A stretch of DNA of 63,344 nt, filler included, from Folioceros fuciformis (taxonomy: Eukaryota), in assembly GCA_049999805.1 (NCBI GenBank). It is 31 parts of 31 records of this genome, joined end to end, with 100 filler letters (N's around TTAATTAATTAA, not from the genome) between each part and the next. Parts side by side here need not be neighbours in the genome. Positions count along the whole stretch, not along the records: positions 27,896 to 28,944 come from JBNGIO010004764.1; 30 more parts are not named here. The stretch is one strand, 5' to 3'. The translations under genes were made by a program, and so were the position numbers. Under the pieces are notes generated by a model. That model did not search any database. It was not told the DNA's origin and saw only the letters and a list, made by a program, of their open reading frames with translations. Below, in pieces: positions 9,685 through 53,624 of this stretch (its first letter is position 1; the number at the start of each line of letters is the position of its first letter).

Positions 9685-12600
9685 TGAAAGGACAATACGA
9701 GGCTTGCAAAACTTTCTTGCACTATTTCTCCTTAGCATGAATTCCTAGATAACAATCACCCATTGTTACGACCGCCAGGAGCCACCAGCCCTTGACGGCC
9801 CAAAGCCTGGAGACGACGCCATGCAGTTGCAGCCAAAGCCATGAGAAGGAGATTCATGACCATCGCCAACTTGAAGCCAAGAGAAGACACTAGAAGACTG
9901 AGCCATACAGCCGTCACCAGTCGTGACCAGGAGACAGAGCCCTGCAGCCACCGCCGGAACCCGACTTAGGTCACCAGACCTATGGGTACCCACAACCAGT
10001 CCTGTCCCGTGAAGACGAACGGAACGGACAGCAACATGTTTGAGGCCTTAGGGTCGTTGTAGTGACTGGAGTGAGTTTGTGGGCACCGAGAGAGGTGAAG
10101 CTGACCGCCGGACAGCGAGGCCTGTCCTACGCCTGATGGGAGCTGGAGGGGAGCCCTCGAATCCATCGTCGAGTCGATCAAGTCCGACCCTCCATCCACA
10201 GCAGCAAGGAACCCCATCGCTCTTTCGTGGGAACGAAACCCAATGTCTCAACGACAGTGGGATAAGTGTGGCCACTAAAGGTGGAACCCGTTGGCAATCA
10301 ATGCCCGGGGTTTTGCCTCCACAGGTACCCACAACCAGTCCCGTCCCGTGAAGACGAACGAAATGGACATCAATGCGTTCAAGGCTTAACCTTACTTTTT
10401 GACCCATAACTTACTTTTCGACCTGTTTGACCCTTAAACAATTAGTTTAACATTTACTAATTTAGATTAGAAAGAGTTGATCTTTACTTTTACTAGGGTA
10501 GTTAGACCCTAACCTCAACAGAATTTCTAGTTTGTTGCTAAGGGCTTCTTGGTAAGACACAGGCCAACCCTTCTTATACCATGAACTCTAAGAAAAACGT
10601 AGCCAATTGCTGAAGGCTCATCTCACGAGAGGAAGCCTCTGCCCTGGAAGTCGATATGGGCTTGGCACATATCCTTGCCGTGACGCTTGGTATCAGAGCC
10701 TATCCATCCTGTAGACCCTGAAGGATTGGAATTGGAGCAGAGAAGGGAGAGCATGACGGCGGTTAGAAGGTCAGCTGGCGGGGGTCCTCTAGTCGCTGGA
10801 ACACCCAAGTCCAATAGGGTCAGATCCCAACACAACCACACCCACCCGACATGACTCGTCTCTACCGATCCCCCGAACCCCAAAAGAGGCCGGGCCACCG
10901 AAACACCCAACAGTCCCTTAGTGGGGAGTAGTGGGCAAGGAGGGCTGGACCTCACCAGCACTCAACCTCTCGTTTTATCGCAGTAGCGGAATGGATGAGA
11001 ACTTGAAGAAGTTGGTGGTGGAGCTGTTACCTGGAGAGAAGGACAACAAGGAAATCAAAGCATTAGCCTGCCGACTCCAAGTGATGCGCTACAAGAACTG
11101 GGAGAAGGCCAACGCAAAATTAGAGTCAGACCTGCTGGAGAGTGAGGAGCAGCCCTTCAAACCTTGCCCTTAGCTCGACAAGGAGCTTTTGAGGAAGATC
11201 AAAACCACGATCTTCGACGGGGTCGTGAAGGAGGCACAGGGAGTGTATGACTGGCTTGAAAAAATGGAGAAATACCTCACAGCGAGCGAGAAGGATGACT
11301 TACAATGAATTCAGTTCTATGTAATGTTGCTGGAAGGGTAAGCCTATCGGTGGTGGAGACACAGGGAAAGAAAAGTGGACCTGGGAATGGAACCGGCCAT
11401 ATACACCTGGGCGGTCTTCAGACAGGTCTTCTTGGAGCAATTCCTGTCAACCACAACCGAGACCTATATCACCAATTCCACAAAATCTATCAACAAGGCA
11501 CTATACAAGAGTATTGTGATAAGTTTTTGCAACTCACCTTGGACCTACCCCGACTGGACGAGGAAAAGAAGGTGGAGAAGTTCATCGATGGGCTTCGTTT
11601 TGAGTTGAGAGCCGACGTCAACCAAACGAACCTAGGGACTCTGGTAGAAGCTATCCGGGCCGCCATGAACTATGGGTTGAACAAGTACAAACACCTAGGA
11701 ACAGCAGGTGGTCAGAAGCAGAAGTATGGCAAGACTGTCAATGCAATGAACAAAAAATTGGTGTTCAAAATTCTCACAAAAGCAGAAAAGAAGGAGTATC
11801 AGGAGAAGAAAATGTGTTTCACCTGCACCAATGCGGATCACGGCTCACGAAACTGCCCCCATGGTAAGGAGTTCATTGCATGGCTAAAGGAAACGGGAAA
11901 TACCACCCGAACCAGCCATCCCCACAGTACGCCCAACAACCGTGGCAACCACTCGGTGACCATCGAAGAGGTAGGAGATTGTCTCCCTTCCAGTAACCCC
12001 AAGGCTTGCAACGGCTATTGTGTACTGAACACTTGTGCTTTGCATTACATACCCTTGAAATTTCGGGTACAACTCGAGGGCATGGCAGTCACAGCCCTGC
12101 TGGATAGTGGGGCTAGCCACCACTATATCTCGGAAGCAGCAGCCCACAAGGCGGACCTACACATACAAGACTCGGGTCAGCTGTCCATAGTAGTGACAGC
12201 GCTAGGTAGGAAGGACACCAGTGTGGAGAAGTGGGTAGAAGCTCATCTAACCTCCCCAGCAGGATATACTGAGGAGTTGAGATTAATAGTAATGCCCAGT
12301 CTTGCTCATGATGTGATAGTAGGAAAACCCTTGCTAGCAGCCCATTCCAAACACCTTCAGATAGACTGGTCGAACAATGTGATCAACCTGCAAGTGAACC
12401 ACCAACAGTATGAATTAGTGGGGGAGGCACACCTCCCAAACAAACACCTGTTTGCGATTCCGTGTTACATAAAGCAATTGCTCGTGGCAGCTTCCTGTAC
12501 ATAGCAAAACTGAAGAAAGGTAACCCCGCTGGAAGGCACTATAGAATTGCAAGCAAAGCTAGCAAGACAGGTAGAGGAGGAACTTCCCGAGAGCATGAAG

Positions 12601-27895: not shown

Positions 27896-28320
27896 TATCC
27901 GGCTATGCATTACTACTAGGAGGTGCATCCATTTCATGGTCAAGTAAGAAACAACCAACTATTGCTTTGTCCAGCACAGAGTCAGAGTATAGGGTCCTCA
28001 CCTCAGTTTCCAAGGATATAGTCTGGAGTAGATTAGCATTGAGTGAGCTGAATTATCCCCAGGATGGACCTACACCTCTCTACTGTGATAGTCAGGGGGC
28101 TATTGCCTTAGCTAGGAATCCTGTTTTCCACTCCAGAACTAAACATATAGCAGTCGAGTATCATTACATACGGGAAATGTTGGAAAATAAAACAATAGAT
28201 ATCAATTGTATTCCAACTCAAAACAATCCAGCCGACCTCTTAACCAAGTCATTAGGAAGATACTTGCATTTAAAACAAATGAAAATGTTAGGAGTACAAG
28301 AGGTTAAGCCAGCTAACTAG
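27896..28320 (+). mobile_element. Ty1/copia RNase H, intact C-terminus of pol
   Basis: SWSSKKQ, SSTESEY, YCDSQGAIAL, HSRTKHI, ADLLTKSL, stop at 28318-28320. Confidence 0.95.
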
Positions 28321-28337
28321 TGGGTATTTTTAAACTT

Positions 28338-28944
28338 TTATAATCCACAAAGTTTATCTAGCATGTCTATTTCCTCTTCTATCTCTAAGTAATCATTATT
28401 GTACTCCTTATCGTCTCTCTCTAATGCCCAAAAGGACCCTACAAAACACCCCATGGGTTAAAAGAAGAAAAATGGTGTTGAGTTAATTATTATAAAGTTA
28501 GGTCACTTACTATATAAGTGCTTGGTGTGTCCTTCGTACTCTTCACAAGGATATGCACCTAACCACATCATTTTTATCCCTCTTTTCTCACATATGTATT
28601 CCATGGGGACCTCGTGGTCGTCTTTTCCTCCAGGGAGCACCATGTAGTTTTCTCTATATAGGTTTCCAGCTGGTAAATAGGAGTTTGGAATTTTCCTTTT
28701 AACTTTTGTTATAGGTTGTAGAGGTAGGGCAAATCTCACATGATTTGTCCCTACCCCTTTTTCCACATCTGCAAAATAGATGAATATAAGTTTATCATAG
28801 GTAATAGTTAGTAACTAGCCTACCTATAGTCTTTTATATTTACTCACATTCTTTTTCCCTAGCTCCTATTTCTCCTATGTCGGCGCTAGCTTGTGCTCTC
28901 CAGCTTGGGCTGCCTTCACACACAGCCTGCTGGGGGCCTTCGTC
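28338..28944 (-). CDS. Spliced antisense gene, 5'-partial: exons 28944-28848, 28768-28511, 28438-28338 (151 aa visible), product unknown
   Basis: Introns GTGAGT...TACTAAC...TTTTGCAG (79 nt) and GTAAGT...TTTTGTAG (72 nt); both phase 1, and the joined exons read without a stop. Confidence 0.75.
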
Positions 28945-44380: not shown

Positions 44381-46662
44381 GAGCCTTGGGAATAATGTCA
44401 GCTATGGAACCTTATGATATTTTGAAGGATTTGGATACAATTCATCCTACGATTTCCATGAAGCAATTATTGGCAGTAGCACCTGAGTGTAGATCAACTC
44501 TCAATGCTTCGCTAATAAGAAGACGGCAAAGGAATAAGGAAATACATGAAGTTAGTTTAAATCCCGATCCGGGAGCACCAGTCATTGATGTGACAATTGA
44601 TGGTTTATTGATACCGGGGGTGCAAGTGGATGGTGGTTCTAGTGTAAACCTTATGACTGCGGATACGATGGAGTTATTGGGTTTGCAGAATCTGATACCC
44701 ACGGAGCTTATGTTGCGAATGGCCGATCATAGTAAGGTTCGACCAATGGGAGTATTAGTGAATGTCCATACTGTTATAGCTGGGATCAGATACAAAATTG
44801 ATTACGTAGTGTTTAAGTTACAAAGTTCGACACTATCGTACCCAATTTTGTTGGGAAGACCATGGTTGTTCCATGCGAAAGCACGGAATGATTGGGGTCG
44901 AGGCACATTAACAATTGGAAAAGGAAGTAATCGGATTGTCCTACAGATGTACCCAGTTCATTATCATGGAGAATCCCAGATTCAACCTACAGAGTTTACT
45001 TCTGAAGGAGCTGATAGCTCAGAGGAAGATGATGACTACTCGTATGAAGGAGACCAGTTACTTCAACCTGATTCCCCTTCAGCGAAGGGTGGTATTATAT
45101 ATCAATGTGGAGGACCAGGGGAATATTTATTGTATCAGGAAGAGACTGAGAATTCGGATCATGCTTTAGCAAAATGGATGAACAATTACCCAGTTCATCA
45201 AATTAGTGCAATGGAACCGGCATTAAGTTCTACCAATTTATCTGACTATTTGACGGGGGCTGAACCCGTCAAACCAATGCAGTTTAATGAACGACCTGAA
45301 TGCATCTGCCAAGATGTTAATATTGGCACCAACGATGAGCGCCAAGTTATAAAAATCTATCAAGGAATACAAGGAGCGGAACTTCAGACGTGGATTGATT
45401 TTTTTCTTTCTCATAAGTCGTCGTTTGCTTGGACATATGCCGATTTGAAAGGAATTCCTGCCGAAATTGGTGAGCATCGTATCATATTGGAAGCGGGTGC
45501 AGTACCAATTCGACAACGTCAACACCGTTTAAACCCGAAGTACTCTTTAATGGTAAAGGAGGAATTGGACAAACTGTTGAACGTGGGATTTATTTACCCA
45601 GTTCCCCACAGCGAATGGGTATCACCTATAGTTATGGTTCCGAAGAAAAATGGGAAGATTCGTATCTGTCAAGATTATCGTAAATTGAATGCAGCTACTA
45701 AAAAGGATTATTTTCCGTTGCCATTTACGGATAGCATATTGGATGCGGTAGCTGGACATGAGTGTTATTCCTTTTTGGATGGATTTTCCGGCTACAATCA
45801 GGTGAAATTGGCCAAAGATGACCAATTAAAGACAACGTTCACTACGGATTGGGGAACTTTTGCTTATACGGTAATGCCGTTTGGATTATGTAATGCTCCT
45901 GCGACATTTCAACGAGTAATGACTCAGGCTTTTCAGAAACATTTACGTATTTCAATGGAAATCTTTCTGGATGATTTCTGTACATTTAGCACAAAAGCCA
46001 ATCATTTAGAGCGGTTAGGAGATTGTTTGGATGCATGTGCTATCAATGGTATTTCGTTGAATTCGGATAAATGTCAATTGGGTGTACCCTCGGGTAAACT
46101 ATTGGGGCATATCGTATCGTACGCAGGGATTGAAACGGATCCTGATAAAGTTATCCGAATAATGAATTTACCTAGACCTGATACTGTAACAGGAGTACGG
46201 GGTTTTCTTGGTCATGTTAGTTATTATCGACGCTTTATTCGTTCGTTTGCTACTGTTTCTCAACCCCTAACCAATTTATTGAAGAAGTCGTCGGAGAATT
46301 CTCCTCCCATTTGGACTAAGGAGTGCAGTCTCGCATTTGCTGATTTAAAACGGAAATTGGTCACAGCACCAATCGTGGTTGCACCGGATTGGACCAAACC
46401 GTTCCAGGTCTATGTCGATGCCTCCAATTTTGCGGTCGGTTCAGTTCTGAGCCAGAAGGATGAAAAAGGTTTCGACCATCCTATTTATTTCGCCAGTCGT
46501 CAGTTAGTAACCGCTGAACGGAATTATACCACTACGGAACGAGAGGCATTGGGCATGATTTTCTCGGTTCAGAAATTTCGTCATTATTTATTGGGTTACC
46601 CTTTTGTCTTTCATGTTGACCATGATGCCCTTAAGTACATGATCAGTAAACCTCAATTGAGT
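44381..46662 (+). mobile_element. Ty3/gypsy (non-chromovirus) PR-RT-RNase H, uninterrupted across the contig
   Basis: VDGGSSVN, ILLGRPWL, SFLDGFSGYNQ, IFLDDF, YVDASNFAVG; about 760 codons with no stop. Confidence 0.97.
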
Positions 46663-51319: not shown

Positions 51320-51561
51320 NNNNNNNNNNNNNNNNNNNNNNNNNNNNNNNNNNNNNNNNNNNNTTAATTAATTAANNNNNNNNNNNNNNNNNNNNNNNNN
51401 NNNNNNNNNNNNNNNNNNNTCTGGGCAGCCCGACGAGGGCAGTCCCTTTTTGCAGCTTTACAACACGGAGTGAGCTATGGCGCAAAGGCATGGACAATCT
51501 TTTTGTTCTCTTTTTCTGAGTGCACAAGACATTAGCCTTGCAGCTGATGGACTAAATTGAA

Positions 51562-51939
51562 GTGCTCACAACAGCTGATACCGGGAGCACGACAACAACC
51601 AACCTTCCAGAGGAGCCAAAGGAATCGTGCACTCCATCAGGAGCAACTTGTCGAGTTGCATTTCGATTATTGGACGGTCAAGTAGTTCAGCGTCGTTTTC
51701 TGTTGTCCGATTCTTCCTCTTATTTGTGGTTGTTTTGTTTGAAGCAACTACAAGAGACTTGGTTGTTCCACAACTCCAATGAGGAGTTTTGGTTCACTGC
51801 ACCAAGTAGACCTGGTGTTGCAACCAATTATACCTTGGATGCACTATCCTCAAAAACTATAGGAGAGACTGGTGTAGCAAATTGTGTGTTAACCATACAA
51901 AAAAGTCAAAATAATTACTGCAAAATAAAAGCAAATTAA
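51562..51939 (+). CDS. Divergent UBX-domain ORF (PUX7-like C-terminus), possibly a pseudogene or a last exon
   Basis: LPEEPK...CRVAFRLLDGQVVQRRFL...LWLFC...KTIGETGVAN; the in-frame ATG at 51547 is followed by TAA two codons later. Confidence 0.7.
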   Translation: MLTTADTGSTTTTNLPEEPKESCTPSGATCRVAFRLLDGQVVQRRFLLSDSSSYLWLFCLKQLQETWLFHNSNEEFWFTAPSRPGVATNYTLDALSSKTIGETGVANCVLTIQKSQNNYCKIKAN

Positions 51940-52586: not shown

Positions 52587-53624
52587 AGAAGCCCATATAT
52601 CATCTGCATCCGGAGTAGAAAAGATAGCACATGCATTTGTCACCTCATAATCAACAAATTCTTGTGCAAACATAGTAGGGGTCACTCCTGTTGTGCCAAG
52701 TCCTAAATCCCTCAGCTGACAAAGAAGCATTTCTATTTCTGCGTAATCTCTATTGAACAAATCTTCACGTGTTACTTGGTTGTCTTGTTGTTGCTCATCA
52801 TCACTGTCAGCATTCCATGTCTCAAAACTAAGTTGATTCAAGTCTATATCCGACATGCTAGCACTTGCTCTCTCTCCTGCCATAACCCAGAGTGTTTCCA
52901 ACAATTTCTAATGATTTTCCCTTTAACATCGATACGCCAACCTTTTTCCAACATAGTCATAGCCATGATATGCATCAATAAGAGGAGAATTACCATTTTG
53001 AATCTCTTGGATTTGATTCTGAACAAGCCTTTTCCTGTAATTGGCCTTAAAAGACTGTATAATGTCTGCATCCATGGGTTGGTAACAAGCCGTAAAATTA
53101 GGAGAAAAAAATTCAACCCTTGTAATTTGAAGCTTACTTTGTGTCTCAGCTTATAGTTTATGAACAGGAGCATTATCCAAAAGAAGCAAGACATTAGTAC
53201 GGCCCCTAACTCTCATGTTCGCATCAAAAAAGAGAATAAATTGCTCAAATAAAGCCACTGACATCCAAGCATTTGAGTTTGCTGACCAATGAATACCCAA
53301 ATTCTCCACTCGTCCAATGTTGCGATTGGTAAAAGCTCTGGGCCTCAAGAATTTGTTGATCACAAAGGGTGGTAATTTATAACTACCATCCATATTGGTT
53401 GTTAAAGCAACAGTTAGCCTTTCCTTTGGAGTTTTCTTCCCGCTCAGCCTCTTTGTTGCCAATGTTATGTTCGGTTCCAATCTGTAGAACAACCTTATTT
53501 CATCCATGTTAAAAATATCCTGAGGCTCGTATCCTCGCATGATACTTTTAATGTCTTCTATTCTATCTTGGACCACTTGCGATGTATCAGCACTTGCAGC
53601 TTCTCCATGCTTCACAAAACCTTT
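52587..53624 (-). pseudogene. pogo/Tigger (CENP-B-related, DDE_1) transposase with a stop and a frameshift
   Basis: HGEAASAD, IFNMDEIRLFY, KERLTVAL, NAWM, LLLLDNAPVH, QPMDADIIQSFKANY. Confidence 0.9.

Follow-up and report, generated by a model that had tools for sequence, protein, structure and literature searches.

Introduction

Nearly all antisense extra genes known in LTR retrotransposons come from a single branch of Ty3/gypsy elements, and their function is obscure. Antisense extra ORFs are reported for the gypsy elements Grande, RIRE2, Retand, PvRetro13 and Boty in the parts of PMC7264820 and PMC4093653 that were accessible. The examples given there of the aORF-3R class are gene23 of maize Grande, rice RIRE2, Silene Retand, ORF2 of bean PvRetro13 and Botrytis Boty. 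The initial annotation of the locus described below had relied on this background, citing Grande, RIRE2 and Retand, and the two sources bear it out.

The extra ORFs that the accessible parts of PMC7264820, PMC4093653 and PMC6317226 describe for copia elements are env-like and lie on the sense strand. According to PMC6317226, a frame of the class eORF-3′F is present in 74% of SIRE elements; the same study scored extra ORFs of at least 250 codons in 582 copia elements and defined a 3′ reverse class (eORF-3′R). A spliced gene such as the one proposed here would escape this filter on plain ORFs of 250 codons. Our literature search found no antisense or intron-bearing extra gene in copia, in agreement with the initial annotation, which knew of no description of such an arrangement for copia; the supplementary tables of PMC6317226 were outside the search and may list some. 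The conclusion of the 2020 review PMC7264820 urges that antisense and spliced transcripts be looked for. It also describes transduced gene pieces in LTR elements, such as maize Bs1, as having one or a few copies and a recognisable host-gene source.

Here we describe a contig from Folioceros fuciformis in which the end of a copia pol is followed on the opposite strand by a frame with two introns. It resembles the gypsy aORF-3R arrangement in that the extra frame lies downstream of pol on the opposite strand, is multi-copy together with the element and encodes a protein without informative relatives. A basic patch, KVKRK, which resembles a nuclear-targeting signal, parallels the nuclear Grande protein named in PMC7264820. 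The differences are several. The hosts of the gypsy frames belong to the Tat/Retand lineage, while the host here is Ty1/copia; the frame is broken by two spliceosomal introns, unlike those of gypsy; and its stop lies 17 nt behind the pol stop, whereas the gypsy frames are located in a long 3′ internal region. The product found here, with its second exon as the query, has no sequence similarity in the protein libraries. Neither a relation to the Grande, RIRE2, Retand or PvRetro ORF2 proteins nor a Tat/Retand gypsy host was found. Given the copia host and the lack of a true relative of exon 2, the gene would be like the gypsy antisense ORFs in its working without being a member of their families.

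With the SIRE-type copia elements (SIRE1, pvRetro3/4) the locus would have in common that an extra ORF separates pol from the 3′ LTR, but their env-like ORFs lie on the same strand as gag-pol and the frame here lies on the opposite one. As in maize Bs1, foreign coding sequence would be contained in an LTR element; unlike in a transduction of that type, several diverged copies exist and there is no recognisable source gene. The chances are in our view about even that the locus shows a copia family with an accessory gene that is antisense and contains introns.

Sequence data and searches

The window, i.e. the whole stretch of DNA that was analysed, comprises 63,344 bases and consists of 31 contigs of 1.0–5.0 kb chained by 30 linkers of the form N44-TTAATTAATTAA-N44, which carry stops in all six frames. 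The contigs are unrelated, and any feature that seems to cross a linker is an artefact. The third contig (4437–5810) contains three 100-N gaps besides the linkers. Transposon fragments of the copia, gypsy and pogo types make up the pieces of the window, and broken transposable elements (TEs) are frequent. Among them, a pogo/Tigger-type DDE_1 transposase fragment at 53154–53624 (minus strand, E = 9e-18) runs off its contig end, while a 760-codon frame at 44383–46662 (plus strand) with gypsy-type RT and RNase H fills a whole contig, is open at both ends and is apparently a young gypsy copy. A 127-codon frame at 51556–51936 (plus strand) gives a weak UBX-domain match (E = 0.005, under the Pfam cut-off) and is possibly the sole non-transposon coding fragment of the window.

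The locus is confined to the 15th piece, a single contig of 1049 bp at 27896–28944. Its true neighbours are absent from the window, where other contigs lie to the left of 27896 and to the right of 28944. Searches of the window with blastn and tblastn returned only the match of the contig to itself and no other copies; the other copia RNase H pieces of the window are 40–46% identical to that of this contig. Rfam gave no matches to the contig at E ≤ 1. Its internal repeats consist of a single 14-nt inverted pair, and direct repeats are absent.

Copies were sought in three DNA runs of the same organism, here called X1, X2 and X3. All three derive from a single sample in a single study, which may also have supplied the assembly itself, and X1 and X2, which are one sample, duplicate each other. 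For comparison of the 3′ end, 49 of 80 related copia loci were used that have at least 625 nt behind pol, and a purine run of at least nine followed by TG was looked for. A codon table was trained on 4912 codons from the TE ORFs of the window. The protein-library and fold searches of the antisense product used single exons as queries.

A putative spliced antisense frame behind the end of a copia pol

The contig contains the following features.

27898–28320, plus strand: C-terminal RNase H of a Ty1/copia pol, 140 codons (27898–28317) followed by a TAG stop at 28318–28320; the contig starts inside the domain
28321–28337, no strand: spacer between the two convergent stops, 17 nt, purine tract absent
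28338–28438, minus strand: last exon of the proposed antisense gene, 101 nt, TAA stop at 28340–28338, encodes an acidic tail
28439–28510, minus strand: intron 2, 72 nt, GTAAGT...polypyrimidine...TTTTGTAG, phase 1
28460–28474, plus strand: purine run followed by TG, run of 13 nt (28460–28472), inside intron 2 and about 153 nt after the pol stop
28511–28768, minus strand: middle exon, 258 nt, 85 whole codons (P0001), basic, with the KVKRK patch
28769–28847, minus strand: intron 1, 79 nt, GTGAGT...TACTAAC (28813–28807)...TTTTGCAG, phase 1
28848–28944, minus strand: most upstream visible exon, 97 nt, 56% G+C, cut at the contig end; its 5′ part is outside the window

The RNase H fragment matches 132 proteins at E ≤ 1e-3 among 766 candidates. 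Identities are 36–57% among the 120 of these matches that are listed and 47–57% for the best of them; the sources are Closterium, seed plants, fungi and metagenomes, and many of the listed proteins carry PF07727, PF00665 or PF14223 (copia RT, integrase and gag families). The fragment aligns with residues 1176–1311 of the 1322-residue polyprotein P0016. The pol thus ends in an RNase H that is homologous to copia polyproteins, and this homology firmly indicates that the plus-strand part is the genuine, natural C-terminal end of a Ty1/copia pol. The stop codon at 28318–28320 was checked and agrees with the end at 28320 given by the initial annotation. Its further statement that neither a PPT nor an LTR separates the two stops also holds, the 17-nt spacer being devoid of a purine tract.

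Joined on the minus strand, the segments 28944–28848, 28768–28511 and 28438–28338 amount to 456 nt, or 151 codons and a stop. The initial annotation had proposed exactly these exons, two consensus introns of 79 and 72 nt in phase 1 and a stop-free frame of 151 amino acids, and every coordinate was confirmed. Both introns are needed by the frame, since 79 is not a multiple of three and reading into intron 2 meets a TGA at once. They are GT–AG introns with consensus donors, a branch site and pyrimidine-rich 3′ parts, and the frame is continuous across them. The visible 151 residues comprise an acidic N-terminal part, a basic middle with KVKRK and an acidic C-terminal tail. Because the gene fills the remainder of the 1049 bp contig, what we call exon 1 is cut at the contig end (28944). 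Up to this end, the contig shows no LTR, PPT, PBS or target-site duplication to which the gene could be tied.

Read without splicing, the antisense ORF behind pol extends over 28503–28814 (103 codons) and encloses the middle exon. The plus strand of 28321–28944 holds no ORF of more than 66 codons. The G+C content is 56% in 28848–28944 compared with 28–41% in the rest of the contig, and the read cover is thinner from 28771 on; a boundary in composition or copy number may lie close to intron 1.

The region behind pol in related elements

Of the 49 related loci, 46 have such a purine run with TG behind it, and in 39 of these 46 the run is situated between −43 and +21 nt relative to the pol stop. 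Its absence from the 17-nt spacer is therefore a real departure. Three of the 46 loci have their first purine run and TG at +151 to +174. In the 21 loci listed of the 80, a G-rich purine run and then letters of the type TGT(T/A)G stand right behind a conserved MLGV-E motif, and we read them as a putative PPT and the first LTR bases. The pol end of the window has the version MLGVQEV of this motif without a PPT behind it. In most of the related metagenome copias (for example L002, at about 440–510), the pol frame overruns the purine run into TGTTGAG-type letters 25–43 nt before the stop. If the purine run is the PPT, the last pol codons of those copias would be encoded by the LTR.

Only one of the 49 related loci has, within the 625 nt behind pol, a plain antisense ORF that reaches 100 codons; the median is 65 codons, compared with 103 here. 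Since 39 of the 46 relatives carry a presumed PPT and LTR start directly at their pol stop and one of 49 has a long antisense ORF, the 3′ end of the present element is unusual.

Diverged copies share the junction

The 1049 bp contig represents a single copy of a repeat with a low to middle copy number. The contigs that align to it number 91 in X1, 70 in X2 and 69 in X3, with identities from above 99% to under 90% (85–99+%). Together they cover 30 of 30 bins in X1 and X2 and 26 of 30 in X3, and the X1 contigs are distributed over four identity classes as 15, 26, 24 and 26. It follows from the many diverged copies of the whole 1049 bp that the gene exists in multiple copies and was amplified along with the copia end. 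The copies are short contigs, which is compatible with dispersal or with local duplication.

Diverged pieces across the junction of the pol stop and the gene stop include 27984–28376 (30 differences), 28280–28521 (18 differences and three gap letters) and 28280–28425 (11 differences), and several X3 contigs cover 28313–28335. As the diverged contigs cross the junction at the same place, it is one ancestral junction, and the copia end and the gene multiplied together.

The listed variant contigs over the middle exon have 1–22 substitutions and no gaps. Each of the three indels reported among the pieces listed lies within an intron, at 28484 (3 nt), 28797 (1 nt) or 28834 (7 nt). Counted over the 24 pieces listed (209 more exist), gaps occur in four of the six that span an intron compared with none of the 18 others, where the independent pieces are about half of the 24 because X1 and X2 are one sample. 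Intron 2 of the variant contigs shows, besides the 3-nt deletion at 28484, alignment breaks at 28460 and 28473. In a variant over 28723–28944, the 79-nt intron 1 holds at least nine of the 18 substitutions, together with an insertion of 1 nt and a deletion of 7 nt. Three of its substitutions are in the TACTAAC box, and the remaining motif still fits YTRAY. This variant extends past the contig end, and the first 30 letters beyond leave the frame open for ten more codons. The 30-letter continuation beyond 28936 in the reads has no match in the window at up to three mismatches.

While several diverged contigs keep the junction and the exons, one multiplied form lacks or replaces 28257–28505. It is seen in an X1/X2 contig that joins 28256 to 28506, so that 249 nt containing the pol tail, exon 3 and intron 2 are missing or replaced. 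Its depth in X1 is about 115, compared with 21–25 for apparently single contigs, which indicates that an altered form spanning the pol end and the gene has itself been multiplied. The read cover of intron 1 and exon 1 is thinner than that of exon 2, at a depth that is unable to rank the parts.

Substitutions were classified for 40 listed of 164 variable places. The 16 of these in the RNase H comprise nine synonymous and seven non-synonymous changes, and the ten listed changes in sense codons of the antisense exons comprise three synonymous and seven non-synonymous ones. The comparison of dN and dS across copies that was proposed at the outset therefore gave no synonymous excess in the exons: the listed changes are about neutral and a positive sign of selection on the protein is absent. 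TE copies decay neutrally once inserted, which makes this test a weak one. In one variant the stop codon is changed to AAG, and the frame continues for seven codons to a stop that overlaps the pol stop.

The main rival to an accessory gene is a composite repeat. A copia element that had lost its PPT and 3′ LTR would abut the 3′ end of an unrelated multi-copy gene, from a host family or another transposon, and the junction would have been spread by segmental or tandem duplication. The lack of a PPT and LTR behind pol, where 39 of 46 relatives have one, is what is expected of a truncated element, and the window itself, with its small unplaced repeat contigs and many broken TEs, is a suitable setting. 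The neutral-looking exon substitutions point in the same direction, as does the absence of the gene from the 80 related copia loci (393,550 bases), in which tblastn with the spliced product detected no relative; the best match (E = 0.098) lies inside a pol and was rejected. It is harder to reconcile with such an origin that both frames are complete at their 3′ ends and 17 nt apart, which would be a rare outcome of random breakpoints, and that copies diverged by 3–14% retain the same junction. Moreover, at least one relative of a host or TE gene would normally be expected among the 1.84 billion representative proteins. An exhaustive HMMER search of these with exon 2 found no true relative; two matches to long, internally repeated proteins, each with four to six weak stretches, were discarded as repeat-inflated and spurious. 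We consider a composite repeat unlikely, although it is the strongest of the alternatives.

A purine run inside intron 2

The stretch 28460–28474 is either the mere complement of the polypyrimidine tract of intron 2 or a candidate PPT with the start of the 3′ LTR. If it is the latter, exons 1 and 2 are in the LTR and exon 3 is in a 152-nt tail. This would be a special case of the accessory gene, with the PPT at 28460–28472 and the 3′ LTR starting from the TG at 28473, so that exon 3 alone of the visible exons stays internal and the two upstream ones belong to the LTR. Transcription of the antisense gene would begin within the 3′ LTR, splicing would lead into the element body, and the PPT/LTR boundary would fall inside intron 2.

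A model for this layout is HBZ of HTLV-1, the transcript of which is spliced and has two exons. The likeness is that of an antisense, possibly spliced unit that enters the element from its 3′ end. HBZ is a gene of a vertebrate retrovirus and there is no homology, whereas the gene here would belong to a copia element and is predicted from DNA. In an HBZ-like arrangement the promoter and the upstream exons would be in the 3′ LTR, and one and the same stretch would serve as the PPT and, on the other strand, as the polypyrimidine tract; we regard this as improbable.

The run is a perfect one of 13 nt followed by TG, its distance of about 153 nt from the pol stop is similar to that in the three related loci at +151 to +174, and the alignments of variant contigs break at 28460 and 28473. 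An antisense promoter within the HTLV 3′ LTR is noted in the accessible part of PMC7264820. The polypyrimidine tract of an intron, however, looks identical when viewed from the opposite strand, and the letters past the 28473 break are not LTR-like at their start. The cover has no step up after 28473, for a depth that is unreliable, and coding exons in an LTR would recur at both ends of the element and in solo LTRs, which is unusual. The layout with the exons in the LTR is accordingly a doubtful one, with about a third of the weight that we give to an accessory gene as a whole.

Chance, coding signal and relatives

It is also conceivable, if quite improbable, that there is no gene and that the frame and its splice-like motifs are due to chance in A+T-rich non-coding DNA, for example the 3′ untranslated region or the LTR of a copia element. 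Among 2000 dinucleotide shuffles of the contig, eight had any open frame through two GTRAGT...YAG introns. One shuffle in 2000 reached 80 codons and none reached 120, the maximum being 85, which argues against a frame of 151 codons arising in this way. Real TE DNA is more permissive and lends the idea some credit, with two-intron frames of 107–138 codons elsewhere. On the 62 strands of the 31 contigs of the window there are only two such frames, the 151 codons described here and one of 107 codons. The latter (11202–11669, minus strand) served as a control; it is antisense to a gypsy gag-protease ORF at 11299–12501 (plus strand), of which it is probably a shadow. In the 80 related copia loci, with long plain ORFs excluded, five of 160 strands (787,100 strand-bases) contain such a frame, of 138, 127, 91, 80 and 67 codons. 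With none at 151 codons, a frame of this kind in real DNA is rare, yet not unheard of.

The motifs themselves are not readily explained by chance. Neither strand of the contig contains a GTRAGT site other than the two donors, whose positions are precisely those that the frame requires. A TACTAAC box is present, as are polypyrimidine tracts, and the indels are in introns only. Codon usage is positive in the proposed frame only: it scores +0.204 bits per codon, compared with an average of +0.176 for the training TE ORFs in frame. The five alternative frames give −0.19 to −0.52, and the exons are each positive when scored separately. These controls support a real-looking exon/intron structure on the minus strand.

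What speaks for the absence of a gene, besides the three synonymous and seven non-synonymous exon changes, is that a homolog, a Pfam family and a confident fold are all lacking. The three exons gave nothing usable in Pfam, where the sole match was HJURP_C (E = 0.14). The best score in the ESM Atlas was 0.83, which is below the lead threshold, and a metagenome scan with exon-2 peptides produced 132 pattern matches and no relatives. The structure prediction recommended in the initial annotation was run with AlphaFold2 on exon 2 alone and was unusable (pLDDT 42).

A single-copy host gene next to a truncated copia, which the initial annotation had named as an outcome that would speak against its proposal, is ruled out by the diverged copies in the DNA runs X1–X3 of the same organism, in which the exons are multi-copy.

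Discussion

The simplest account of the locus is an accessory gene in the 3′ part of a copia element, antisense to gag-pol. The initial annotation had proposed such a spliced accessory gene. Those parts of it that concern the copia pol end, the exon/intron anatomy and the multiplication of the gene with a shared junction stood up well, while the expected synonymous excess in the exons did not appear and one form lacks 28257–28505. A location inside the LTRs, transcription, from the 3′ LTR side as the initial annotation has it, splicing and any function are inferred.

If the accessory gene is real, its GT–AG introns would read CT...AC in the genomic RNA and would hence remain unspliced there, so that they could survive each round of reverse transcription. 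Transcription would start from the gene's own promoter on the 3′ side and head towards pol. The antisense mRNA would then be fully complementary to the genomic RNA of the element, and its 3′ UTR would have to overlap the RNase H codons. If the antisense ORFs of Tat/Retand-type gypsy elements are taken as a guide, the product, of at least 151 residues, may help or regulate the element in the nucleus. Silencing through double-stranded RNA could in addition be supplied by the antisense RNA.

Should the junction be a duplicated accident, the finding would be an ordinary one. If the accessory gene is true, a copia family carries an antisense gene that keeps its introns, and the arrangement would have arisen independently of that in gypsy. 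Introns on the sense strand are lost on retrotransposition, so the kept introns would be direct evidence for expression of the gene from an antisense unit of its own. The case would also be a compact one, with 17 nt between the stops and an mRNA that is complementary to the genomic RNA, in which a protein, an antisense RNA or both may act in the control of the element.
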